Shown here: piece by piece, positions 14,155-48,528 of the stretch
Layout of the letters: each line of letters opens with the position of its first letter
Position numbering within the stretch: position 1 is the first letter of the stretch
Source of the DNA: a virus
Lineage: Duplodnaviria > Caudoviricetes
Length of the DNA: 64,000 bases
Virus record (IMG/VR): IMGVR_UViG_3300020356_000001
Span: 1 to 64,000 of that record
Reading direction: 5' to 3' (one strand)
Made by a program: the position numbers and the translations under genes
The notes under the pieces: model-generated
What the model was told of the DNA's origin: nothing
Databases searched by the model: none
The model's input: only the letters and a program-made list of their open reading frames with translations

Positions 14155-14293
14155 TTGGTAGGGGTATAGTCGAAGTCAAGTGAGATATCTCTTGACGAGG
14201 GATGCAGGAGGACACTTTAAGAGGGCAATTCGCTTACTGAATTAAGCGAAACGACTGTCTTTTGATTGATCGGGTTCGAATCCCGACTACCCA
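14155..14293 (+). ncRNA. tRNA-like structured RNA (acceptor + long central domain + T-arm; no D-arm)
   Basis: T-arm TCGGG-TTCGAAT-CCCGA at 14270-14286; TTGGTAG/CTACCCA acceptor-like pairing; ATAGTCG/CGACTGT helix enclosing two hairpins. Confidence 0.5.
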
Positions 14294-14495
14294 CAATGCT
14301 ATGTGAGTAAGAGAACGTGACGGGTTAGCGCTCGTTAGGTGGAGTAGTACTGAGACACCAGCGTTGATGAAAACAAAGCAGGGGATACACATTTGATTCG
14401 ATAAGGAGATATCTTTATGTGGAATACACAGAACAGGGTACGAACATGCTCTCTACCGTCTGCTGTGGTTGTGTGTCCCCGACTTTTTCGCACAA

Positions 14496-14652
14496 GTTCT
14501 GCTAAAGCAGGAGTAATGGATGACTGTGGCGGTGTGCGCACGGTACTGGTCCCGAAGGGAGAATGTACTTGACCGAGTAGCAGAACAACATAATGGCAGG
14601 GTGCCAGTAAATACGGGGTCTTTCATTCCCCTTCCTTCGCTGGCATCCTGCC
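14496..14652 (+). ncRNA. Conserved two-domain structured element, copy A
   Basis: 72 of ~75 core nt identical to 47777-47929; covarying terminal stem; second hairpin with shared AATACGGGG. Confidence 0.75.
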
Positions 14653-14896: not shown

Positions 14897-15154
14897 ATGT
14901 TATTAGCAGTTTATGAGGCTTACGCTAATTGCACGGCGGCAACTCCGTGCGAAGATAAAAGTTCGTTAACTATTAACGATTTCGTAGGCGAGGCATGGTG
15001 GTTTATCGCCGGTGTTCTCGTAACTGGATGGGTGTATGAACTCGTCAGACGTAAACGATTAAAGCGCTTACGTAAGAAGTCATACCGTTCAGGGTTGGAG
15101 GCATTACGTAATGTCACAGGCAACGTCTACGATGATAAGAAAGACAAACACTAG
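14897..15154 (+). CDS. Single-TM membrane protein
   Basis: AWWFIAGVLVTGWVYEL followed by a basic cluster. Confidence 0.7.
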   Translation: MLLAVYEAYANCTAATPCEDKSSLTINDFVGEAWWFIAGVLVTGWVYELVRRKRLKRLRKKSYRSGLEALRNVTGNVYDDKKDKH

Positions 15155-15164
15155 GAGGTGTGTG

Positions 15165-16193
15165 TTGAATTTAAGTACAATAGATAATCGTGCTGAACAT
15201 GAACACAACTGGATACAACGTGTTAATGATGCGTTGCCACGTTCTGTTCACGCACAAGCAACGGCTGTTGACGCAAACTTTGATGTCCTTTATGAGACAT
15301 TAGGGTGGCAACATCCAGACACTTCGCATTTTGTGTGGAATACATACAATCGAGGTGCATATAAGGGGCAACCAACCGATCAGGTTATTCTACGTGCAGA
15401 TAATTACCTGCCGATGGGTAACGTATCAGGTCAGTACCCTGACCGTGACGGGTATCGTCATGTCTACGATGTGTTAGAGGACATGTTCCCACAGAGTTGT
15501 GAGAGTGTGACCATGTACGGTGGTGGACAGCAAGTGGTTGTTGAGCAGGTGCTTAACGATGAAGAACCCATTGACTTAGGTGATGGTGATGTGTTGCAAC
15601 CTTTCATTTATACTCGTATGAGTTTGAATCAGGTTTGGAAAACTGAAATCATTCCTGTGTCTAAGCGTCTGGCGTGTGAGAACATGCTGGGTACTGGTGG
15701 TCACATCATTGGTGTGCGTGCTACTAAGAACCACGATCAGATTCTTTCGCAGAAAGTTGTGGAAGAATCACAAAAGCAAGGGTTGATTATCGCAAGGATG
15801 GCTCGTGTGATGAAAGATAAACCTTTCACAGACAACCAGTTCATGTCGATGATGGATTCGTTGTTGCCTTTATACACAGTGGTCGATGATGTCACTGAAC
15901 GTACTCGTCAGAACATATTGAATAAGCGTACTGCTATACGTCAAGCATGGAGACAAGAACATCCTAATATGTGGGGCGCATACAACGCTTTTCAAGGTGC
16001 TGAACAGCATCGAATAAACATCGGCAACTATGCCGGTACGAACAAACAGTTTCGTGTGCTGGGAGAAACAGTAACTGCACAGGAAAAGTGTTTGCTCAAA
16101 ACTTTAGATGCTAAGGGAACCAAGATAGCGGACGAGGCAGAGGCTTACTTACAAGGTCTGATTAGTTACGCTCACTCAGAAGAACCTTTTTAA
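15165..16193 (+). CDS. DUF932/DUF945-like phage/plasmid protein
   Basis: RLACENML, RATKNHD and NMWGAYNAFQGAEQH motifs; start placed after AGGAGG. Confidence 0.7.
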   Translation: MNLSTIDNRAEHEHNWIQRVNDALPRSVHAQATAVDANFDVLYETLGWQHPDTSHFVWNTYNRGAYKGQPTDQVILRADNYLPMGNVSGQYPDRDGYRHVYDVLEDMFPQSCESVTMYGGGQQVVVEQVLNDEEPIDLGDGDVLQPFIYTRMSLNQVWKTEIIPVSKRLACENMLGTGGHIIGVRATKNHDQILSQKVVEESQKQGLIIARMARVMKDKPFTDNQFMSMMDSLLPLYTVVDDVTERTRQNILNKRTAIRQAWRQEHPNMWGAYNAFQGAEQHRINIGNYAGTNKQFRVLGETVTAQEKCLLKTLDAKGTKIADEAEAYLQGLISYAHSEEPF

Positions 16194-24210: not shown

Positions 24211-27200
24211 CTAACGCAATCTCGCTCCACGTAAAGATTTTTCTTGGCTAATCTCATCACGCATTTCATAACCACGACTAATTAATTCCATCTGCTGCTC
24301 ATACTTTGTGTTAGTTCTAAGCCCAATACCAAAAGCAAACGACATCCAACTAGACAACGTACGTTCTTGATAACGCTGCTCATCAGGGAACAACCTGCGG
24401 AAATCAGTGAACGTAGGTAACAACTGTGCCATCGTGTGCAACTCATAATCTTTCATAGCCCAATCACCCTGATCGTTCTTAGCCGCAAGACCACCCATAT
24501 TCAACAAAGGCATAAGACCCGGAATCATCGCGTACGCACGAGGAACAACCTCATACCTGCCATCAAAATTGTAATCCTTCCACAAATTTTGCTTTGCTTT
24601 CCATTCGTAAGGAGCCTTAATCAAAGGAGTAACTTGTGTACCGAAAGTACCTAACGCTATTTGAACACGATCAACAACAGACAAATCTTTATCAAAAGCC
24701 AACGCAGGATCAAGCAATTCCAACGGAGCCTTAAACGGCATGTCAGGAAGAATAAACATATCCTCCCCTTCAAACTTAAACGGCAACTGAATAGCACCTT
24801 GACGTTGCATCCAACGAGGATAAACAGAAGGAGGACTCTCAGTCGTAGCCTCAATCTCCTTCTTCAAACTGTTGTAACGATTGAATACAGCAGGCTTACG
24901 AGCAAACATTTCAAACATCAACGGCATGTTCTTACGAGTCCACGTATAAAAAGGAATTACTTTCTTAACAACATTGCGTTCAAAATCAGACAAGTCATCG
25001 TAATCGAAATGAAACTTCATCACATTATCAAACGCCTCATCAACAGCGCCACCCTTATACAGTGTGTCGAACCCTAAAGAACCACGCACAAAAGTTTCAG
25101 TAGCCATACCCAAATTACGAGACAACCTTAAAGGAGCGTTACGACTAGACGCAGGATTCATAGCATCTATCAAATTAATTTTCTTACCACGAATAGTTAC
25201 ACTAGGACCAATACCTTTACCACCAGTCTCAACAAACTCAGTTGCAACCTGACCACCAGCAGCACCCAAAGCACCACTCTCAGACAACTGCCTTATGTAT
25301 TGCACATGCTCAGGATTAACATTATTAGGATTAATACCACGCGCTTTCATAGCCTTACGCATACTGCTAGCACGATCAGTTAAACCTAAACGAGTTGCTT
25401 CTTCTTCCTGAAACTTCCAATACGAACGCATAAACCTACGGTAATTAGACCAATTCATACCAGACAAATGATTCATAAACACAGCAGACATAAAGTTCCT
25501 GCCATGAAATCCGGGCTTTGCAATCATGTAAGCGCGTAACAAATTGTGCAATTTGTCATACTTGCGGAAGAAACCAGCAGCACCACCCCTAGCAACATAC
25601 CTTTCAGCAGCAACCATTGATTCAACAATCGCTTCAGGACCCTGCAATGTAGCACCAATAGGTTTAAAGCCAGAACGGAACACAGTGTCTAACACTTCTT
25701 CACGTTTAGGAATCCTATGCAAATCATCAGCACCTTCAGGGAACTGAGACACCAACTCCAACCAATCATTAGCGCCTTCCTCGAATTGATCCAAAGCAAG
25801 GTTCAACATCTCTGCATCATTATCAATAAGAGCGCCTACAGCCAACCGAATCTCAACAAGATCATCAGGTATATCTTCCAAAGGAACATTCTCAGGCGCA
25901 CCCAACCGAGCAAGAGTTTCTTTTGCTCGATCAATCTGTCCCTGTTTCTGAGCCAATGCAGTATCCAAAGCCCATTGACTCATGCCAGCATTAACATCTG
26001 TCCGTCCTTTATCGGCAACAGCATTAGCAAATTTTCTGCTAAGTTCTGCATGCACTACAGAAACTTCTTCTAAATTTTGTGTAAGTAAAGCACGTTTATT
26101 AACGAGTGCTTCCATTAAATCAATCTGATAAGCATTAGGTCCAACGCCTTGATAATTAGGACCCATGTAACTTTGTGCTTGTCCATCCCACCAGTCTAAA
26201 AACGAGGCTGCGTCTATAAATTTTGTTTGACCTTCTGCTGCTCCCATTGAACCTTTGCCAATAATAGTTTCAATGGCTGCCGCTTCATCTTCCCATAACT
26301 CACCAGCAGTTTTAAGAACATTTGATTCATCATCAGGATCAATTATCATAGGCATATCAGGGTCATCAGGGTAAGGATTATGCAACCTGCGTGCAGCATC
26401 ATCACTTAAATCGGCGCTATCAAACGCAGCGTCACTAGCAATACGAGAAATGTTTCTGTGTGTAGTCATCACATCAGAACTGTGTACAGCAAGAGGATTT
26501 GTAACCATCATGTTTGCCCAAAGTTGTGGCGATGGCGAAAATCTTTTTCCTTGAAAAGGAACTGCTTCAGAAAGAGCATTAGCGCTCATTGTTATTTCTT
26601 CTTCATTAAACCAAGCAGTAGCGTTATACCCATCCGCACTTAAAGAACGGCGGTAAGTTTCATAAAAGTTTTTAAACAACCACTGTTGAGGTTTAACTGC
26701 TTTATCAGACAACTGGCTAATAGGAGTACCCGAAGGTTGCATAGTAAATAGCAACGCATCTATACCACCAGCAAAACGAGAAAGCATAAAATTGTTTTTA
26801 GCAATTTGACCAGCCCAACCATCAGGATTTATAGCACTATCTATTTGACCTAAATAAACAGAAAGCATTTCAGGTACATCACCTGTTTTAATATTTAATT
26901 CTTTCCGCAACTCAGTAGATAATTTTGCTATATTTTTTTCCCAAGGGTCTGTCAATCTGGGGCGCATAATCTGACCTTCAGTCAAACGTCTAGAAACTTG
27001 CCCCCCACCAGAAGTATCAGTCATCCAAATAGCAAAACGTAAACGTTCCTCGAAACTCATTGAGTTTAATTTCTGAACCATTTGCGCACGTTGAGGATCA
27101 ATACCAAACGCACTTGTAGGAATTGCAATATCACCCATCTCTAAAGCCATACGAACAACAGCCGCAGATTTACTAATCTGTTCACGCCTTAAACTGCCAG

Positions 27201-30200
27201 CAGCAAAACCACCACTTAACATATCGGGAAGATCTTTAGCAGTTCGCTCCCAAACTCTTAAAACTTTTCTAAGCAACTCAGGGTCAGCGTCATGTACGCG
27301 AGCAATCTGATCCAACATCATATGACCAGCACCAGAACTTACTAAAGGATCAGCAGCAGCCAAATAACCACCCCTTCCACTTCCTTTAATAATGTCGTGC
27401 ATTTCAATAGCAAATCGTTCTATATCTTCAGGCGATTCAATACTTGTCTGACGCATCATCAATTCTGCTACACGCACTTCAGTGTCAGCATGTAAACCAT
27501 AAACCTTAATATTTTTAGCACCCAACGGAGTATCTAAAACAAGGTTGTAACTATAAGGAGACGTATTATCTACATACATTCCATCCAAAGTCACATTAAG
27601 AGAGGGCTTATCAGCCCACGCCAACTCAGGGCTACCATAACGCAAAGACGGAGCAAGAAAAGAACTGTTACTCTGATGCAACAACCTTGTTGCAGTACCA
27701 TTCTTAATAGCCTCATCAATAGTTCTTTGAGGAACTGAACGAGCAGCCAACGTAGCACCAATCAAATCATCAGAACCCTGAGCAAAAAAAGGCTGATTAA
27801 ACTTATTAGCCAAAGCCTCTAATCTAGATTCAAGAAAATCTACATAAGAAGCCTGTTCCTCTGCTGCTAATCCGGGCATGTGACGGCGAACAAAATTTTC
27901 CATACCACCCATACGGTTACGCAAATCTAACAACTCTCTTACTTGATTACCTAACGCTCTAGTAAGGTCACCATCTACAACACCGCCCTTAACTAAATCC
28001 TCGTATGCGAAACGAGCGCTTTGTAACATGCTGTCAATATCTTCTTCAGGATCTAAATAATTCCAACCAATATTTTCTTTCAAAGCGCCTTGAGCGCGGT
28101 GAAAGAAAGAACCCCCGTTATCAATACGTGTAACACCATCCAAAGCAGAAACGCCTACATTGTCAAACCCTGTGCCTAACACATCCCAGTTAGATAACAA
28201 CACATCAGCCGCTAAACCGCGTGCTAAAACTTCAACAAACGGAACACCAACAGCATCAACTTGTTGCACCCTTGGGTCAGTTGGATCAGCAAGAAACTGC
28301 ACACCATTACCATCCGTGTAAACCCTTGCAGTAGCAGGATCTAAACCACTCTGTTGAATTGTAGTTAAATCATCAAGCCAAGGAGACACATGATATATAG
28401 AACCATCCGATGCCCTAGAAGCATAAGACGCAGGAGCAGATAAACCTAACTCCCTGTATAAAGCATTAGACAAAACCTCACCAGTGACACGATCACGCCC
28501 GTTACCATTACGGACAAAAAAACTTTCCCCAGTTTCAGGGTCAAACGCTTCATCACCATACTGTTTAACATAATAAACTTTGTCACCCAACTGATACTTG
28601 CCACCAACATTCGTTCCTAATGGACCCTCAAGTAAAGTTCCATTAATAAGAATGTCATCAATGCTTACACCAACAGGACCAGCAGGTATCTGAGAAGTAG
28701 TAGGCACATTTTGCATAGCCTGAAGATTTTTTTTCAACTGAACAGCATCTCTGACTGTCATAATAATTGGTTCACCACCATTAGGAGGTTGAACTACTAA
28801 ACGTAAAGGCTGACCCGCTGCTTCCGCAGCATCTTCTAAATCTCGGATAGTTGTAGCGTAGTAATCTATTTGAATATCAAGAGCCTCATCTATCTGCTGA
28901 ATCATCTCACTCATTTCACGACCATCAAACAAAGTCGCGCGAGCAGGCAACCCACTACCAGCATGATATGTGTACAACAAATCCATAACATCAGGAGAAG
29001 TTAAAACCTCATCCAAAGACCGACCATCGGCAATACCCTGATCTAATGCTTGAAGAATCCCTGCTTTAGCAGTCGTCACATTATCAGGAGTAGGAATATC
29101 TAAAACATCAACATCAGCAAACTCTGCATAATCATCAATAACTTTAGTTGCTTCTTCCATATCTAAACGTATGCGCTTTAATGACCAGTCAAGTTTGTAA
29201 GCAGCATTACCCGTTTCCCACCCAGTAAGAACAGCATCTGCTGCACCTGTTGTTGGCACTTCAACCTTTGGTTGACGAGCCAACACATCTAATTCACGTT
29301 CAACACCAAGCCAAACACCAATACCTTTTTCATCAGACTGTTGAAGAATCCCATCCATATTCCCAAACAACAACTCAACATCAGATTCAAAACCTGCTTC
29401 ACCAACAAAAATAAACCTGTCACCCTCTTGTCTTAAGAAAGAAGGCAACTCATTAGCAGCAGCAAACGCAGCCAAATCAGCATTAGGATCAGCAGGATTC
29501 AACCCACCCAACTCACGCACAAACAAATCAAAATTATCAGAAGTCTTAAACACACTAGTAATAGCACGCTCTAAAAAAAGTACCTGAGCAGTACCACTAC
29601 CCAAAGTCTCATAAGCAAAACGCAAAGATGTTTCATCCATAGCCAAAGACTTACTCTTATCAACAAGCCTTAAACGTTCTTCTTCCAACTTAACAATGTT
29701 TGCCGCATCAGGATTATCTTCAATGTCTTTGGTCAACCTTGCTATCTGCTCATCAACTTCGGCTCTTTCAGCCTGAACAGCCACATAACTTTCTTCTTGA
29801 CGAGTAATCTCATCCGCATAACGCCGTTGAATAGCATCCGCTTCCAACACTTCACGTTCAGCCTGATCTACAACAGCCTGCAACTCCTCAATGTTCTTAT
29901 CAACAACAGCCTGATCGCCTACACCTGCTGATTTACGGTTCATAGCCTCCATCAAATTAGATGTAGCATTCATCCACGCAGCCTGAGCATCTCTAAAACG
30001 GCGACCTGCTTGCACAGCACGAGAACTAGGGAGTTTAACAAACTCAGCCATCCTGTCTATAAGAATACCCTCAGAAAACAACAGGCTTTCCGTGTAAACC
30101 TCACCAGCACGTTTAGAAATCTGATTAACATAACCACGCATAGCAGTCTCAATGTCATCAACAAACAAAGAATAATCCCCACCATTACGTTCAATAATGT

Positions 30201-32184
30201 CAGTGATCTGCTTCTCAATAGAACCCCAAGTACGCCCATCAGGATCACCAGCGATTTTAGATCCGGGTTTATTTAACTTCTCACCCCAAAAATTGTCAGC
30301 AATATCACCTTCTTCTTTAAGAAGTTTCCGTGCCTCATCAGGAGTAATCTTCTCACTCTTAACACGAGCAGCGACAACAGCCTCAAACTCATCAGGATCA
30401 ACATACTTACGTCTAAGTTCAGGACCTTGAGGTTTCCATTTACCACGAGACTTATGTATGCGCCTACTGTATTTACCTGACTTAGCCCACGCTTCCTGAA
30501 TCGCTTCTTGCGCCTCGTCAGTTAATTGGCGAGGCACATAATTATCTATAAAAGACAACCAATCTGCCCCACCACCAGCCCTGTTAGCCTCCACTCTTAA
30601 CAACTCAAAAGTATCTCTACCTTTCTGCAAAAGAGCATCATCTATACCAGCAGCAGCATTAACATCACCAGCCAAAGCATGATACATCTGGCTAACATCT
30701 ACACCTGCTTCGTCAACATCATTCAAAAAATCGTTAGCGATACGGCTCAACTGAACTTTAGTACTACGACCTTTTGAATTACCTCGCGCGACAGCATGTA
30801 TAACACGTTTACCTTGCTGAATAAAAACAGAATCAGAAGATTCACGAATAGCAGTTTTCAACTCAGGCAACCGACCAGCAAAACGACCCTTAGTAACCAT
30901 ACGAGTCAACCCGCCACGCTGACCTATAATACCGTTACGTAAACCTTGCGGGATGCCTGTAACTAACTTGCCTAAAATAGGAGTTTCAGAAGTCATAATA
31001 CGCATACCGACAGGAGCCTGAACTCCTTTACGAGTAACCTTATTAATAGCCCTTTCAATAGGATCAGCAACTCTTAAAGCCCTACCCACTGGACCCGTAA
31101 ACGGAACCTTCATACCAAAAGACAATTTCATTTTGGCAGCATCATCAGCAGTTAAAAAAGCACCTTTAAAACCTTGTTCTGCTTGACGAAAACCTTGACG
31201 TAAAGGATCAGTAAAAGCATCATCACCAAATCTTGCAGCACGATCCAAACCACTATCAGCCCATTTAGAAGCAGCAAAACGAAGATCATCACCATCAACA
31301 GATGTCGCACCTTTCTTTTGCGCACGCGCACCTATCTCATATAAACGCTCTAAATCAGCAACTTCCTGATCCGTAAACTTAACAACTAAAGACTGTGCAT
31401 CTTCACCAATTTCTTCAACCGCTGTTCTGGAAGTCCACTCCCAGCCATCATCAACTTTTTTCAAAGAAGATTTACCACCCTTGGCTATATCACCAGCAAT
31501 GTCATCCGCTAAAGCAGACCAATTAGCGTTATCCATTTGACGGGCGACATAACCCATACCTTCATCACCAACTGTTTTACTAAGATTAGTTAAAGCAGAC
31601 TTACGAACAAGTTCTCTACCTACTTCACGCGCACCTTTTCGAGCCAACGCACTACTAAACGCTGCACCTTTACCTACAAGACCCAGATAAGACAAAGGAT
31701 CTAAAGCAACGTCACCAATAAAACCTAAAGCAGCAGCACCAAATTTTTGCCAACCACTATCACGATCCTGCATGACATCATAGTCATGCAACAAACGACC
31801 AAAAGTATAATTGTCATTAAACTGTTTTTTAAAATCACCCCAACTGGCATCCTGCCCAGTAAAAACATCAATAGTTTCTTTTAACGCAGAACTAGTAAAA
31901 GCCAAAGGCTTTTGAATAACATTAAGAAAGCCGCCTACAGGTCCCTTAGTTAAAGCATTTACATACCAAGGAGTGTTTGCTTTAATGTACCGTTCATTAG
32001 CCCACGCAACATTGTGACGAGAAGGAGCAATAGTCGTAGACAAAGGCGCTCCTGCGCTTTTGCCAAGAATTGATTCTAAACGACCACGATCAGTAACTTC
32101 ACCTACACCAGATATATTACGTTTTTCGCCAAGTATGGCGCTTAATCTGCCTCGGTCTGTGGATGTAGGAGTTTCATATGCCAT
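24211..32184 (-). CDS. Giant internal virion/ejection protein (large polyvalent type) with an internal HipA/PI3K-like kinase domain
   Basis: 2657 aa; C-terminal FDYDDLSDFERNVVKKVIPFYTWTRKN segment typical of podovirus ejection proteins; kinase motifs at ~27780-28640. Confidence 0.75.
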   Translation of the reverse strand: MAYETPTSTDRGRLSAILGEKRNISGVGEVTDRGRLESILGKSAGAPLSTTIAPSRHNVAWANERYIKANTPWYVNALTKGPVGGFLNVIQKPLAFTSSALKETIDVFTGQDASWGDFKKQFNDNYTFGRLLHDYDVMQDRDSGWQKFGAAALGFIGDVALDPLSYLGLVGKGAAFSSALARKGAREVGRELVRKSALTNLSKTVGDEGMGYVARQMDNANWSALADDIAGDIAKGGKSSLKKVDDGWEWTSRTAVEEIGEDAQSLVVKFTDQEVADLERLYEIGARAQKKGATSVDGDDLRFAASKWADSGLDRAARFGDDAFTDPLRQGFRQAEQGFKGAFLTADDAAKMKLSFGMKVPFTGPVGRALRVADPIERAINKVTRKGVQAPVGMRIMTSETPILGKLVTGIPQGLRNGIIGQRGGLTRMVTKGRFAGRLPELKTAIRESSDSVFIQQGKRVIHAVARGNSKGRSTKVQLSRIANDFLNDVDEAGVDVSQMYHALAGDVNAAAGIDDALLQKGRDTFELLRVEANRAGGGADWLSFIDNYVPRQLTDEAQEAIQEAWAKSGKYSRRIHKSRGKWKPQGPELRRKYVDPDEFEAVVAARVKSEKITPDEARKLLKEEGDIADNFWGEKLNKPGSKIAGDPDGRTWGSIEKQITDIIERNGGDYSLFVDDIETAMRGYVNQISKRAGEVYTESLLFSEGILIDRMAEFVKLPSSRAVQAGRRFRDAQAAWMNATSNLMEAMNRKSAGVGDQAVVDKNIEELQAVVDQAEREVLEADAIQRRYADEITRQEESYVAVQAERAEVDEQIARLTKDIEDNPDAANIVKLEEERLRLVDKSKSLAMDETSLRFAYETLGSGTAQVLFLERAITSVFKTSDNFDLFVRELGGLNPADPNADLAAFAAANELPSFLRQEGDRFIFVGEAGFESDVELLFGNMDGILQQSDEKGIGVWLGVERELDVLARQPKVEVPTTGAADAVLTGWETGNAAYKLDWSLKRIRLDMEEATKVIDDYAEFADVDVLDIPTPDNVTTAKAGILQALDQGIADGRSLDEVLTSPDVMDLLYTYHAGSGLPARATLFDGREMSEMIQQIDEALDIQIDYYATTIRDLEDAAEAAGQPLRLVVQPPNGGEPIIMTVRDAVQLKKNLQAMQNVPTTSQIPAGPVGVSIDDILINGTLLEGPLGTNVGGKYQLGDKVYYVKQYGDEAFDPETGESFFVRNGNGRDRVTGEVLSNALYRELGLSAPASYASRASDGSIYHVSPWLDDLTTIQQSGLDPATARVYTDGNGVQFLADPTDPRVQQVDAVGVPFVEVLARGLAADVLLSNWDVLGTGFDNVGVSALDGVTRIDNGGSFFHRAQGALKENIGWNYLDPEEDIDSMLQSARFAYEDLVKGGVVDGDLTRALGNQVRELLDLRNRMGGMENFVRRHMPGLAAEEQASYVDFLESRLEALANKFNQPFFAQGSDDLIGATLAARSVPQRTIDEAIKNGTATRLLHQSNSSFLAPSLRYGSPELAWADKPSLNVTLDGMYVDNTSPYSYNLVLDTPLGAKNIKVYGLHADTEVRVAELMMRQTSIESPEDIERFAIEMHDIIKGSGRGGYLAAADPLVSSGAGHMMLDQIARVHDADPELLRKVLRVWERTAKDLPDMLSGGFAAGSLRREQISKSAAVVRMALEMGDIAIPTSAFGIDPQRAQMVQKLNSMSFEERLRFAIWMTDTSGGGQVSRRLTEGQIMRPRLTDPWEKNIAKLSTELRKELNIKTGDVPEMLSVYLGQIDSAINPDGWAGQIAKNNFMLSRFAGGIDALLFTMQPSGTPISQLSDKAVKPQQWLFKNFYETYRRSLSADGYNATAWFNEEEITMSANALSEAVPFQGKRFSPSPQLWANMMVTNPLAVHSSDVMTTHRNISRIASDAAFDSADLSDDAARRLHNPYPDDPDMPMIIDPDDESNVLKTAGELWEDEAAAIETIIGKGSMGAAEGQTKFIDAASFLDWWDGQAQSYMGPNYQGVGPNAYQIDLMEALVNKRALLTQNLEEVSVVHAELSRKFANAVADKGRTDVNAGMSQWALDTALAQKQGQIDRAKETLARLGAPENVPLEDIPDDLVEIRLAVGALIDNDAEMLNLALDQFEEGANDWLELVSQFPEGADDLHRIPKREEVLDTVFRSGFKPIGATLQGPEAIVESMVAAERYVARGGAAGFFRKYDKLHNLLRAYMIAKPGFHGRNFMSAVFMNHLSGMNWSNYRRFMRSYWKFQEEEATRLGLTDRASSMRKAMKARGINPNNVNPEHVQYIRQLSESGALGAAGGQVATEFVETGGKGIGPSVTIRGKKINLIDAMNPASSRNAPLRLSRNLGMATETFVRGSLGFDTLYKGGAVDEAFDNVMKFHFDYDDLSDFERNVVKKVIPFYTWTRKNMPLMFEMFARKPAVFNRYNSLKKEIEATTESPPSVYPRWMQRQGAIQLPFKFEGEDMFILPDMPFKAPLELLDPALAFDKDLSVVDRVQIALGTFGTQVTPLIKAPYEWKAKQNLWKDYNFDGRYEVVPRAYAMIPGLMPLLNMGGLAAKNDQGDWAMKDYELHTMAQLLPTFTDFRRLFPDEQRYQERTLSSWMSFAFGIGLRTNTKYEQQMELISRGYEMRDEISQEKSLRGARLR

Positions 32185-36440: not shown

Positions 36441-36749
36441 TTATTCGGCTGCCTTTGCTGCTGCTGTAGGAGGATCATCAGGCCAAACAACTTCGGACAC
36501 CTTGCTAAAACTAGCAGGTAAGTCACGTAGTTCTTGTCTGTATGTCGCCCATTCCTCAGCGGTATGATCGCCTAATGTTGCGTCTGCTATTTGAGTCCAG
36601 TCACAATCACGCAACAATGCGTTACGATGCACTCTGGTAAAAGTGAAATCCAGATCCATTGCTGTGGCTCTATCTTCCATTTCTTTTATTTCTTCTGCCG
36701 TGAGTTCGATGTACTCACCGTTCACGACCTTATATCTTGGTTCTGCCAT
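36441..36749 (-). CDS. Tail fiber assembly-like protein
   Basis: RNALLRDCDWTQIAD...WATYRQELRDLP...WPDDP. Confidence 0.8.
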   Translation of the reverse strand: MAEPRYKVVNGEYIELTAEEIKEMEDRATAMDLDFTFTRVHRNALLRDCDWTQIADATLGDHTAEEWATYRQELRDLPASFSKVSEVVWPDDPPTAAAKAAE

Positions 36750-36757
36750 ATTTTCTC

Positions 36758-37285
36758 CTATCCTGCTCCATTTATTCCATATAATGTAAAAGTGCTGTAT
36801 TGCACAAAATCTCCACTGGCGCCATAAACTATGTATTTAAAAGCGTTAACAGCGGCAGTATTGTTCCAAAGAGTTCCCGCCATATCAACAACGATTTGAC
36901 CACCTGTAGTCGAATTATTAGGTGAAGTGGCTCTTGACAACACAGATTTTTTATTAGTGCTGTTTGCATAGTTAGGTATCCACATTTCCACACAACCAAA
37001 AGTGTCCGCTAAAACAGAAGCGGCGGGACAATAACCGCCCCAAGCATACGCTCCAAAACCTGTAGAACCTGTCCCACTGTTAGCATATAAAAACTGATAA
37101 TCATAATTAACATCTGTTGTGTCTCCATTCAAAGCAAAATGACACCAATCTTCATAAGCGCTAGTATCTGCTCTAACTGAGGCTACAAAATACAAATGAT
37201 CGTAAGACGAAGGGATCGAAGTTTTCTCATAGTAATTAGCCGCTCCGCTAAACTCTGTGTGATCTATAACATTCCAAACAGCCAT
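36758..37285 (-). CDS. Tail-associated protein, tandem paralog 3
   Basis: SIPSSYDHL...IPNYANSTNKKSV...LWNNTAAV...STFTLYGI. Confidence 0.7.
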   Translation of the reverse strand: MAVWNVIDHTEFSGAANYYEKTSIPSSYDHLYFVASVRADTSAYEDWCHFALNGDTTDVNYDYQFLYANSGTGSTGFGAYAWGGYCPAASVLADTFGCVEMWIPNYANSTNKKSVLSRATSPNNSTTGGQIVVDMAGTLWNNTAAVNAFKYIVYGASGDFVQYSTFTLYGINGAG

Positions 37286-37803: not shown

Positions 37804-38387
37804 TATGCTGTCACCATCCTTGGGAGAATCCCAAACAAATCAAAACGTGTACCTGCCTCTCCAGCAGCAGCACTTACACCTGTAAGATCAATTTCCGTAA
37901 TTGGTGCTTCATATTTCCACACATTTGCAAAAGTAGCGATGTAATTAGTGACATCATTAGTCTCACCAGACCATGCCATAACGGACTTGAATTTACCGCT
38001 GTTAATGTCAAACAAATCTATAACCACAGTCGAAAAAACGTTGGCAGTAGCATTGTCACCTGCAACCCATCCTGCATAAGCATAAGTCGTTGTGGCTGTA
38101 CCAGAGGCAACAGTAGTACCACCGCCGTATAAATACTGCATGGAGTAGTTGTTGCCGTAATCATTGTTCAAATTTAATAAAAGAGAAGTTGATACTGCGG
38201 CTTTGGAAGTTCGCACATAGCCAATAATTTTAAGATCCATGTACTGTGACCAGTCGTTAGCACCAGTCGTAGAAGTGAAAACCACATCTGCGGCAGATGG
38301 TGTTGCTGTACCAAGAGCAACCCACGCTTCACCATCAGTGAGAACGCCGTCAACTATGTAATCAGGTGTTGCTGTGTTTACTGTCAT
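37803..38387 (-). CDS. Tail-associated protein, tandem paralog 1; spans the A/B junction
   Basis: DWSQYMDL...FDINSGKFKSV...TRFDLFGI; ATG at 38387 overlaps TGA. Confidence 0.75.
   Translation of the reverse strand: MTVNTATPDYIVDGVLTDGEAWVALGTATPSAADVVFTSTTGANDWSQYMDLKIIGYVRTSKAAVSTSLLLNLNNDYGNNYSMQYLYGGGTTVASGTATTTYAYAGWVAGDNATANVFSTVVIDLFDINSGKFKSVMAWSGETNDVTNYIATFANVWKYEAPITEIDLTGVSAAAGEAGTRFDLFGILPRMVTA
38277..38386. repeat. Direct repeat of 1-110
   Basis: 107/110 identical. Confidence 0.95.
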
Positions 38388-39238
38388 CACGCCACCGCAT
38401 ATCTGATTAGAACAATACCCGTTGCGCCCGCTGCTGAAACGGTTGATGAATAACCGCCGCCCCCGCCACCACCAGTGTTGGGGACACCGCCTCTGGCATA
38501 ACCCGCACCAGCGGCACCGCCGCCACCGTCACCGCCGAGAGAATCGCCACTACTTCGACCGCCACCGCCACCGCCCGCATAATATGGAGTCGTAGCAGTG
38601 ATTCCATAACCCGTGGCACCGTCGCCGCCGTAACCCGCAGCATCAGTACTGCCCGCTTCGGCTTTGCCGCCACCACCGCCGTAAACATAACCAGCAGGAA
38701 TGTCAACAGCGCCGCCTGCGTTACCCTGACCTGCTGTACCAGCCCCAGCCGCTCCTACACCAGAAGCAGTAGTGTTCCAACCAGCGCCGCCGCCAGAACC
38801 ACCTGCTGAGCCGTCATAACCGCTTGTGTAACTGTTTCCTCCGTGACCTCCACCCGTCGCTGTAACACTCAACGCTACAGAGTTAGCCCCGTTGGTGGCT
38901 GTCCCTGTCGCACCGTTTTCTCCACCGTCGCCGCCTGTACCTACGGTGATTGTGTACGGACTAGAAGCCGCATCAACGGTAACACTTGTACCTGTCAACA
39001 TACCACCAGCGCCGCCGCCACCTCTGCCACCGCCACCAGCGCCTCCTGCGACTATCAGATAGTCAACGTCAGCGGAACCAGCAGAAACAGTTAATGTGCC
39101 AGTACCCCTGAAAGTATGGACACGATATGTTGTACCAGAATCCTCATACTGTGTGATAATCCCACCAAAAGCAGTCATAGGAATAGCACCAGCACCACTA
39201 GCGGAAACCGAACCAGCTAAAGCATGTATGAGAGACAT
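38387..39238 (-). CDS. Glycine-rich tail protein
   Basis: 283 aa; homologous to 111-1076. Confidence 0.8.
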   Translation of the reverse strand: MSLIHALAGSVSASGAGAIPMTAFGGIITQYEDSGTTYRVHTFRGTGTLTVSAGSADVDYLIVAGGAGGGGRGGGGAGGMLTGTSVTVDAASSPYTITVGTGGDGGENGATGTATNGANSVALSVTATGGGHGGNSYTSGYDGSAGGSGGGAGWNTTASGVGAAGAGTAGQGNAGGAVDIPAGYVYGGGGGKAEAGSTDAAGYGGDGATGYGITATTPYYAGGGGGGRSSGDSLGGDGGGGAAGAGYARGGVPNTGGGGGGGYSSTVSAAGATGIVLIRYAVA

Positions 39239-45109: not shown

Positions 45110-45196
45110 TTCAAGGTTATGAGTCTATAAGATTGGGATTCAAGGTTATGATTCTATAGTAGTGGGATTCAAGATTATGAGTCTATAGGAGTGGCA
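45110..45196. repeat. Three tandem 29-bp iteron-like repeats (fourth copy at 45317-45345)
   Basis: TTCAAGGTTATGAGTCTATAAGATTGGGA / TTCAAGGTTATGATTCTATAGTAGTGGGA / TTCAAGATTATGAGTCTATAGGAGTGGCA. Confidence 0.85.
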
Positions 45197-45523
45197 TGTC
45201 ACGAGTTGATTTTAAATATAAAGATGATAAGTACACATATCTTTCAGGCTTTCATGGTAAAAGCTGGGGTATTTCTTTAACAGATTTTATACTCGGTTGC
45301 GTTTCACGCACCGAGTGTCAAGGTTCCGATTCTATAGGAGTGGCAGGTAGATAATCGTTTCCTCTTGTGTGTTTCGGATTGCCACCATATCAGCCCGCTC
45401 GTACCTCACGGGTTCCCGGCTTCGCCGGCTGATTTGTATGGTGTCATCCGCTCCCCACAAGAGGAAAAGATATGGTTTTGTGGGGAGTGGGTGTATAATA
45501 AATGATAATAATAGGGAGAAGAA

Positions 45524-47474: not shown

Positions 47475-47768
47475 ATGACTGGTAGAATGAAAGAATATAT
47501 GATGGAGATGGAGGAGGAACAGATGAATGAACCTGACTTAAGCTCTGTCTTTGGTGCTGACATAGAAATCTATTCACCTTCTGCGATCTTAGAAATTGCA
47601 GGATGCTATGACGTAAAGATAAGAGAACACATAGCTTTATATGGCAGAGCAGAAATTAATCATGCACATTTTACAGAACGTGTTACTTACTACCAAGCTA
47701 GAAAGAGAAATCTTCTAGTGTTATGGGCTGAAGTAACAGATAAAAGAAGGGAGTCAGAACCTTTCTAA
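47475..47768 (+). CDS. Hypothetical protein
   Basis: 97 aa ending in ESEPF. Confidence 0.65.
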   Translation: MTGRMKEYMMEMEEEQMNEPDLSSVFGADIEIYSPSAILEIAGCYDVKIREHIALYGRAEINHAHFTERVTYYQARKRNLLVLWAEVTDKRRESEPF

Positions 47769-47776
47769 ATTCGCAC

Positions 47777-47929
47777 ATGTTCTACTAAAGCAGGAGTAAT
47801 GGATGACTGTGGCGGTGTGCGCTAGTACTGGTCCCGAAGGGAGAATGTACTTGACCGAGTAGTAGAACATTGATAGTGGCAGGTGGAATACGGGGATAGG
47901 AAACTATAGGTATCCACTTGTCACTATCA
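47777..47929 (+). ncRNA. Conserved two-domain structured element, copy B
   Basis: 10-bp terminal stem ATGTTCTACT/AGTAGAACAT; core near-identical to 14496-14586; second 17-bp hairpin containing AATACGGGG. Confidence 0.75.
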
Positions 47930-48041
47930 CAATTATTCATGGTTCACCCCTCTATATAGAACGAACATAGAACCATGAACGAGTAGAGCAAATGAGTTTT
48001 ATTTTCATTTCCTCAAGGGCTGATTGTAGTGACCTTTAAGT

Positions 48042-48094
48042 GTGAGTAATCATGGAAGGCGCTATGAGAGTGGGTTCGATTCCCACCTACTCAC
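48042..48094 (+). ncRNA. Minimal (53-nt) D-arm-less tRNA-like element
   Basis: GTGAGTA/TACTCAC acceptor, CATGG/CTATG arm, T-arm GTGGG-TTCGATT-CCCAC. Confidence 0.55.
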
Positions 48095-48120: not shown

Positions 48121-48528
48121 ATGATGAGAGATATAACTCTTGTTGGTAATTTAACTCGTGAGTTCGAGTATAAAGCATTGAGTAATGACAGCGTTGTAGC
48201 TAATGGTTCAATGGCTGTTAACTCCAGGACTAAAGATCCTAAGACAGGTGAATGGGGTGATGGTGACCCACACTTCTTTAACCTTGCAGTATGGGGTGAA
48301 GTTCAAGCAGAGAATGTAATCGAGTCTCTTGATAAGGGGACTAGGGTTATTGTTAACGGACAGATCAATATGAAAACTGTTACTGATGATGATGGTAATA
48401 AGAAAACATATAGTGAAGTTAGAGTTGAACACATTGGCCCTGAATTGAGATGGGCTACATGTTCTGTTGCTAGAAACGCTAAAGGTAACAGTACTTCTAA
48501 GTACAATACACCTGAAGAGAAGTTCTAA
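48121..48528 (+). CDS. ssb: Single-stranded DNA-binding protein
   Basis: ITLVGNLTR...FFNLAVWGE.QAENVIESLDKGTRVIVNG...IGPELRW. Confidence 0.9.
   Translation: MMRDITLVGNLTREFEYKALSNDSVVANGSMAVNSRTKDPKTGEWGDGDPHFFNLAVWGEVQAENVIESLDKGTRVIVNGQINMKTVTDDDGNKKTYSEVRVEHIGPELRWATCSVARNAKGNSTSKYNTPEEKF

Follow-up and report, generated by a model that had tools for sequence, protein, structure and literature searches.

In the hepatitis delta virus (HDV)-like ribozymes, which include the theta ribozymes of gut phages, the strands succeed one another in a nested double-pseudoknot order (P1 5', P2 5', P3 hairpin, P1 3', P4 and P2 3'). The same order, as a, P1 5', P2 hairpin, a', P4 and P1 3', is supported by pair counts in a structured element that occurs twice in the DNA analysed here, the first 64 kb (64,000 nt, the window) of the 81,361-bp IMG/VR virus record IMGVR_UViG_3300020356_000001 (G000). 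The likeness extends to the 5'-most strand, which pairs with a segment located after an internal hairpin, to the variable P4-like hairpin that precedes the closing strand, to the abrupt 5' onset of conservation and to the siting between phage genes. However, the first pair of the element is C-G or G-C, whereas HDV-like ribozymes have a G·U pair closing P1 at the cleavage site; the element contains in addition a helix, c, that joins the segment before a' to a J4/2-like segment, and far more of its nucleotides are invariant. Membership of this family was rejected, as one cannot draw a 3-bp P3 whose 3' strand abuts that of P1, nor therefore an L3 forming P1.1 with J1/4, and the G·U closing pair is missing.

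The EAR element of Bacillus is intercistronic and pseudoknotted. The HK022 putRNA, a nascent early-operon RNA, suppresses pausing and termination and acts alone on RNA polymerase (PMC9378689). The element of the window would resemble both in acting in cis within the nascent transcript of early or long operons, whatever gene lies downstream, but it has no likeness to them in sequence or fold, the hairpins downstream of it lack U tracts and it is not promoter-proximal. The PeSL cassettes of T4-type phages, each a sigma-70 promoter plus a terminator stem-loop, are small conserved cassettes that drive module shuffling (Arbiol et al. 2010, PMC2839356). Our element is likewise a small, highly conserved non-coding cassette that borders variable early genes and is a likely recombination substrate. 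It differs from PeSLs in its complex pseudoknotted fold with about 68 constrained positions; moreover, neither window copy has a promoter-like site upstream, and the predictions gave no terminator-like site on the + strand. A PeSL-type cassette was discarded on these grounds and because the core lies 2-3 nt past a stop codon in 8 contexts. Like the ROOL, GOLLD and RAGATH orphan RNAs, the element is carried by phages and has a modular, highly structured make-up in which GNRA loops cap peripheral hairpins; Rfam shows no match between them in sequence or structure, and the core is far smaller (about 100 nt) and its taxonomic range narrower. The T4 gene 32 mRNA pseudoknot, implicated in SSB autoregulation, is also located next to a phage ssb gene, but our element is mostly downstream of ssb, elsewhere is not adjacent to it, and has no A/U-rich unstructured leader.

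None of the 4227 models of Rfam 15 matched at the gathering threshold across the whole window. At E<=10 the two regions holding the copies gave chance matches only, of at most 19 bits and outside the core, and at E<=1 there was no match in 10 variant loci. Judged from its sequence, the element represents a family of structured RNAs in marine phages that had not been described before, its fold being partly supported by covariation, and the opinion of the first-pass annotation, made from the letters of the window, that it fits no known class was borne out. Resemblances seen by eye to Y RNA (UGGUCCGAAGG / ACUUGAC), 5S rRNA loop E, c-di-GMP-II, ZTP and hammerhead (CUGAUGAG, in P4 of the L004 type) were abandoned, Rfam giving them no backing at E<=10 and the segments concerned belonging to replaceable modules or having other partners.

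Both copies are on the + strand, at 14488-14586 (A) and 47771-47868 (B). Between 14487-14600 and 47770-47883 they are 91% identical across 115 nt, and the flanks do not align. The two identical 36-nt blocks that had first drawn attention to the locus are present at their given coordinates, as are the G-C to A-T double change in the terminal stem (14501/14581 versus 47784/47863), the G·U versus A-U pair at the base of the inner hairpin and the 1-nt indel in a junction (ACG versus TA). Three points were revised. The core assigned to 14496-14586 stands, but the true start is 8 nt more 5', at the TCGCACA of 14488-14494 and 47771-47777; the terminal stem exists, with 9-10 bp rather than 8; and the TCCC-GAA-GGGA helix, although present, is a peripheral module that is swapped or moved in other phages and lies outside the invariant core. 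Nor do the copies mark two early regions of a single phage: the record joins two related phage genomes, called here units alpha and beta, with one copy each. The parts are as follows, numbered in copy A with position 1 at 14477; R1 is a covariance model built from 21 sequences.

14488-14586, + strand: core element, copy A, phage unit alpha (sequence; R1, 129 bits; pair counts)
14488 (position 12), + strand: copy A, invariant U at which conservation begins (U12)
14489-14494 (positions 13-18), + strand: copy A, pseudoknot strand a, CGCACA
14496-14504 (positions 20-28), + strand: copy A, 5' strand of P1, partner of positions 102-110; 19-111 is a tenth pair in most sequences
14507-14527 (positions 31-51), + strand: copy A, hairpin P2, GCAG / 13-nt invariant loop GAGUAAUGGAUGA / CUGU
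14530-14532 (positions 54-56), + strand: copy A, 5' strand of helix c, CGG, partner of CCG at 97-99
14533-14538 (positions 57-62), + strand: copy A, pseudoknot strand a', UGUGCG, partner of 13-18
14539-14571 (positions 63-95), + strand: copy A, replaceable hairpin P4, with the closing pair C63-G95 invariant
14572 (A96) and positions 100-101, + strand: copy A, linkers A and AG
14573-14575 (positions 97-99), + strand: copy A, 3' strand of helix c, CCG
14578-14586 (positions 102-110), + strand: copy A, 3' strand of P1
47771-47868, + strand: core element, copy B, phage unit beta (sequence; R1, 128.7 bits; list of open reading frames)
47772-47777, + strand: copy B, strand a
47779-47787, + strand: copy B, 5' strand of P1
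47790-47810, + strand: copy B, hairpin P2
47813-47815, + strand: copy B, 5' strand of helix c
47816-47821, + strand: copy B, strand a'
47822-47853, + strand: copy B, hairpin P4
47855-47857, + strand: copy B, 3' strand of helix c
47860-47868, + strand: copy B, 3' strand of P1

The core thus comprises a closing helix of 9-10 bp, an invariant hairpin, a 3-bp helix, a replaceable peripheral hairpin and a pseudoknot between CGCACA in the 5' flank and the internal TGTGCG. Since helix a/a' crosses both P1 and c, the topology is that of a double pseudoknot, and the invariant core amounts to about 68 nt. All 23 core pairs are standard in 100% of the cells of an alignment of 24 distinct sequences. Two-sided changes occur at four pairs: one in the pseudoknot (15-60), two in P1 (20-110 and 25-105) and one in c (54-99). 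The change at 15-60, from C-G to U-A, is seen in four of the distinct sequences (rows L004, L026, L019/L054 and L052), and that at 54-99 in L016. One-sided changes always produce G·U on the + strand and never A·C. The terminal pairs of a/a', C13-G62 and G14-C61, are kept in 24/24 sequences. When the strands were slid out of register at most 48% of the cells paired, and no shuffle or slid register matched the observed paired percentage or the number of double changes. RNAalifold, which cannot draw pseudoknots, offers a small alternative hairpin of 53-55 with 61-63, but this leaves the co-changes at 15/60 and 54/99 unexplained. Helices P1, a/a' and c are each backed by compensatory changes. Hence the claim of a functional structured nucleic acid under strong sequence constraint was strengthened by the 24 homologues, the full conservation of pairing and the compensatory changes in three helices, and the covariation foreseen for a larger alignment was found at the four pairs mentioned. 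The helices would be sterically compatible, with A96 alone bridging the 6-bp a/a' helix, because loops of one or two nucleotides bridge the deep groove in classical H-type pseudoknots.

Conservation sets in sharply at U12: mean pairwise identity is 95% over the 68 core positions and 41% over the 11 columns upstream. Neighbouring WhiB-like and SSB proteins share only 43-47% identity at loci whose cores are about 95-99% identical. By contrast with the junction strands and the P2 loop, whose sequence is invariant, P4 exists in at least six unrelated versions, and the peripheral modules change places. The module UGGUCCCGAAGGGAGAAU forms part of P4 in most phages, whereas L034 has it in the P2 loop; L021 carries a GAAA-capped module at P4, and L052 carries it in the P2 loop; and a three-way-junction module, ACAUGGAGGACAUGCA...UGUUGAAUCUUGU, serves as P4 or as the first hairpin 3' of the core. 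From one to four long and very stable hairpin cassettes follow the core within 2-7 nt, and sometimes also precede it, many of them with the arms GAUAGUGGCAGGG/CCCUGUCACUAUC. Unlike the core, these cassettes have drifted, with compensatory changes, and taken as an internal clock they indicate that the core is under unusually strong constraint. Invariant junctions and loop, P4 swapping, insertions in the P2 loop and relocated modules are, at the level of sequence, features of a tertiary-folded functional RNA.

About 50 contigs of marine viruses or metagenomes carry the core, in 24 distinct sequences; they were collected by exact-word scans of IMG/VR contigs, JGI/ENA metagenomes and GTDB genomes and with R1. 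The exact-word scan found it in 25 marine metagenome stretches in addition to the IMG/VR contigs. Among 185,579 species genomes of GTDB, the 20-mer scan gave one real match, a 10-kb phage-like contig binned in a Flavobacteriaceae metagenome-assembled genome (MAG), and four weak ones (three of at most 14 bits and one without any match) that provide no host clue; apart from these there was no 20-nt identity or complementarity. R1 scores all the full-length copies at 69-134 bits and also detects the core in 10 ENA contigs to which the sole route was a WhiB-like protein 47% identical to that of G001, one of two complete 47-kb relatives (G001 and G002) carrying one copy each. A chance origin of the likeness is excluded: the same core was recovered, at 69-134 bits for the full-length copies, from IMG/VR, from JGI/ENA metagenomes and from the MAG contig of GTDB. 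In the INPHARED phages blastn gave no match to the element, and a search for related loci with the single SSB protein returned nothing. In one relative (L069) ssb and a whiB-like gene are 5 nt apart and the element is absent; in 13 relatives to which the exonuclease led (32-44% identity) the element is likewise absent and no comparable gap lies between the genes. The element is therefore a portable accessory cassette.

The carriers are a group of uncultured marine phages of about 47 kb. Their hosts are probably marine Actinobacteria, given the weak similarity of the portal-like protein to that of Streptomyces phages, its closest cultured relatives (26-28% identity), and the WhiB-family genes of many relatives. 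The latter are found in most relatives right after the RNA region, with a four-Cys pattern (e.g. L039:6191-6520 and L042:6457-6789), and PF02467 matched the cluster representatives P0001 and P0003; whiB is absent from both phages of the window. Six contigs (L033, L046, L049, L054, L007 and L023) begin or end within the core, which is so strongly conserved that it behaves as a repeat and breaks the assembly graphs of co-occurring phages. A 94-kb metagenome contig carries two identical copies; having about twice the length of the 47-kb G001, and its core and flanks, it is probably a two-fold concatemer of the G001 genome.

The core lies 2-3 nt past the ssb stop codon in G001 (L039), G002 (L042), L009, L021 and L032, and at the same spacing after another open reading frame in L022 and in copy B, which starts 3 nt past the stop codon (47766-47768) of the preceding frame; altogether the gap is at most 3 nt in 8 contexts. 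This close spacing, with no promoter-like site upstream of the window copies and no + strand terminator predicted, indicates that the element is an intercistronic part of a polycistronic early mRNA, independent of gene identity. Its neighbours are replication genes (ssb, PD-(D/E)XK nuclease, DnaB-like helicase and AEP primase), the next gene being WhiB-like, a Cas4-like PD-(D/E)XK exonuclease, ssb or a small reading frame. It stands at mosaic junctions, with flanking genes that differ between phages, and in G001 and G002 it is located about 6 kb into the early gene block. As the downstream genes are unrelated, a classical riboswitch is disfavoured and a generic processing device fits. SSB autoregulation, stop-codon read-through and frameshift stimulation were dismissed as a general function, the position relative to ssb and to stop codons not being constant.

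At every locus the orientation of the element is that of the flanking early or replication genes. At 19/20 loci the + strand gives the better fold for the 200 nt 3' of the core, by about 12 kcal/mol over the - strand, and G·U pairs make up 152/1232 of the pairs in the downstream folds on the + strand and 77/1118 on the - strand; a bias of base composition possibly contributes to this folding excess. It is very likely that the element works as RNA and not as single-stranded DNA (ssDNA), a strand-specific ssDNA signal being possible.

Our preferred reading, held tentatively and well short of even odds, is that of a cis-acting self-cleaving or self-processing RNA in the early transcript. It is favoured by the gene-independent intercistronic site, the compact pseudoknotted fold, the abrupt 5' boundary of conservation and the interchangeable peripheral hairpins; ribozymes that cleave at their own 5' edge show such an abrupt onset. 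The element would be transcribed within the polycistronic early/replication mRNA and would act in cis, cutting this mRNA at or near its own 5' boundary. The stable flanking hairpins would shield both cleavage products, and the cut would uncouple the expression of upstream and downstream genes. Several observations weigh against self-cleavage. The independent covariation events are few, a single lineage providing those of the pseudoknot and a single one those of helix c. P2 is without variation and hence unproven, its sole support being the whole hairpins inserted in its loop in L034 and L052. An exhaustive search within positions 29-52 found no 3-bp partner for positions 53-56, so that an HDV-like P3 is lacking. 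The helices are nearly as invariant as the junctions, which is unusual for small ribozymes; a conserved partner that recognises them, alternative conformations or a horizontal spread of recent date could lie behind this. An mRNA cleaved immediately past a stop codon would end at the stop, which is awkward for termination. Finally, catalysis and protein binding are indistinguishable in silico. Were self-processing correct, or were a ligand or partner bound instead, the element could represent a new class of RNA fold, with a double pseudoknot, about 68 constrained nucleotides and interchangeable docking modules, that travels horizontally as a cassette without reading frames among marine actinophage-like viruses and processes or reprograms their early transcripts; this is advanced with reserve.

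The near-invariance of helical residues next to drifting cassettes suggests sequence-specific recognition by a partner, and it is what a trans-acting non-coding RNA would display if host RNases cut it from the early transcript and it then served as decoy, sponge, scaffold or anti-defence RNA by binding a conserved partner from host or phage. Processing could be signalled by the flanking hairpins and, in the window, by tRNA-like minihelices. The patchy accessory distribution (L069 and the 13 exonuclease-reached relatives lack the element) is typical of host-interaction or anti-defence cargo, and peripheral modules at differing positions fit protein binding or docking. However, the element has neither promoter nor terminator of its own, no co-occurring protein gene specific to the phages that bear it was found from units alpha, beta and G001, which share little beyond replication genes, and the GTDB genomes offered no 20-nt complementarity beyond the matches already described; we consider this role possible though rather doubtful. 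A conserved target in host RNA polymerase would also account for the invariance. In this case the element would be a cis-acting RNA that modifies the polymerase and gives put/EAR-like antitermination through the hairpins after the core. Hairpins without U tracts can terminate transcription in Actinobacteria, the likely hosts, and the following hairpins could be 'I-shaped' terminators of this kind. Whatever the genes, the core keeps to the sense strand within early operons, one to four very stable hairpins always come 2-7 nt after it, and the HK022 putRNA sets a precedent (PMC9378689). On the other hand, U tracts are missing and no + strand terminator is predicted, hairpins also precede the core in several phages, the core is some 6 kb into the G001/G002 early block and not near its start, and the fold is unlike the two-stem-loop put RNA. 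Antitermination thus appears unlikely.

The position among the replication genes and at mosaic junctions would suit an element acting as DNA or ssDNA, either a strand-specific signal (single-strand initiation site or origin) for the phage's AEP primase and DnaB-type helicase or a PeSL-like crossover boundary. C-GAA-G and C-GAAA-G loops make very stable mini-hairpins in DNA too. The PeSLs show that small conserved cassettes can drive shuffling (PMC2839356), and identical cores are ideal recombination substrates that break or mis-join assemblies, several contigs ending inside the core. Against a DNA signal, about 12% of the predicted pairs are G·U, on the sense strand only, a compensatory pseudoknot and a swappable periphery are typical of RNA, and the PeSL hallmarks, a sigma-70-like promoter-like site (sought upstream of the window copies) and a + strand terminator, are lacking. 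Absence from close relatives having the same replication genes is likewise unexpected for an origin, and such a function is quite unlikely. A riboswitch-type aptamer that controls elongation or translation of the downstream early genes in response to a small ligand is less credible still: about 68 near-invariant nucleotides, a pseudoknot and the P1 closing helix resemble an aptamer, and the local hairpin G53-G55/C61-C63, competing with the pseudoknot and c, might act as a switch, but the genes downstream are functionally unrelated, the next ribosome-binding site lies beyond one to four autonomous hairpins, and neither an expression platform overlapping P1 nor a + strand terminator is predicted. 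Highly improbable, lastly, is the CsrA/Rsm-type sponge proposed with low weight in the first-pass annotation, or a small protein-coding gene. CAGGAG and AUGGAU are invariant, the latter in a loop, and the AUG 6 nt after AGGAG resembles a translation start. Nevertheless, only two GGA motifs are conserved, the third being in the replaceable P4, and the CsrA family (PF02599) is absent from the record and from one actinobacterial control genome, the probable hosts being Actinobacteria. A coding function was rejected: as the annotation had noted, no common reading frame exists, the homologues keeping only the 8 codons of MDDCGGVR before stops or divergent frames, with no synonymous variation. Whichever of these functions applies, the identical core very probably doubles as a homologous crossover point between co-infecting phages, by analogy with the PeSLs.

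Natural RNA folds with such a density of constrained nucleotides are rare, and historically they proved to be ribozymes, riboswitches or the cores of ribonucleoproteins. The element is small enough for direct biochemistry, and its natural variants map the dispensable parts. Its carriers are abundant uncultured ocean phages, probably of marine Actinobacteria, in which gene regulation is barely known. As a portable cassette without reading frames, and a likely recombination hinge, it bears on the shuffling of early regions in phages. In practical terms, identical cores break or mis-join metagenomic assemblies, and the present record consists of two genomes joined.

From 36.4 to 81.3 kb the record is syntenic gene by gene with the complete 47-kb relatives G001 and G002. 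Its last 340 nt (81020-81361) recur at 36444-36788 with 93% identity and its first 155 nt at 38277-38431 with 92%, and several gene families occur twice. On this sequence evidence of synteny, end repeats and duplicated families, the record is made of two phage genomes that are related yet distinct, alpha (about 1-36.4 kb) and beta (about 36.4-81.4 kb), joined via a shared tail-gene cassette; the 81-kb record is either a chimeric assembly or a natural heterodimer.

Besides the core, the two regions contain the following hairpins and tRNA-like pieces:

14595-14652, + strand: long hairpin cassette directly 3' of copy A, arms GGCAGGGUGCCAG / CUGGCAUCCUGCC (fold)
47872-47928, + strand: hairpin cassette after copy B, GAUAGUGGCAGGUGGA... 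/ ...UCCACUUGUCACUAUC, with two G·U pairs (fold; of the GAUAGUGGCAGGG/CCCUGUCACUAUC family seen in most relatives)
47936-47979, + strand: second hairpin after copy B, UUCAUGGUUC ... GAACCAUGAA, loop motif CUCUAUAUAGA (sequence; relatives)
48042-48094, + strand: tRNA-like minihelix in the intergenic region of copy B, with a 7-bp acceptor-like stem, 48042-48048/48088-48094
14270-14294, + strand: T-arm-like hairpin 14270-14286 (UCGGGUUCGAAUCCCGA) followed by CUACCCAC at 14287-14294, about 200 nt 5' of copy A (sequence)

The palindromic loop motif CUCUAUAUAGA(U)A, at 47950-47962, recurs in hairpins adjoining the core in L017, L059 and L022, and could be a protein site or a promoter-like element. 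The minihelix includes a canonical T-arm at 48070-48086 (GUGGGUUCGAUUCCCAC), with a partial match of 15.5 bits to the Rfam tmRNA T-arm. These tRNA-like pieces may be processing signals for RNase P or the CCA-adding enzyme; that they form part of the element is uncertain, and none of the 16 related loci inspected showed a T-loop-like motif. ARAGORN reported no tRNA or tmRNA gene at default settings and only implausible calls at thresholds of 60-80%; a tmRNA or intron-containing tRNA in the two intergenic regions appeared solely at the lowered thresholds, with implausible tags, and was discarded. An attP reading of the tRNA-like 3' fragments was unsupported as well, no tyrosine integrase being found in the record, where serine recombinases were not searched for.

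Four copies of a 29-31-nt repeat, UCAAGGUUAUGAGUCUAUAG..., are located at 45110-45350, three in tandem at 29-bp spacing and the fourth about 150 nt downstream. Iteron-like and near the start of the early region of unit beta, they may mark an origin or an operator array. Each unit encodes a giant virion-type protein on the - strand, of 2657 amino acids (24211-32184) and 2658 amino acids (68121-76097 of G000), with no mutual BLASTP similarity at 1e-5; the second is 27% identical to its counterpart in G001/G002. Unrelated early proteins (47475-47768, 15111-16193, 48121-48528 and L022:531-773) end in an SSB-like acidic tip plus Phe (..ESEPF, ..SEEPF, ..PEEKF and ..KQPF), which suggests that several proteins compete for the same SSB-tail docking sites.

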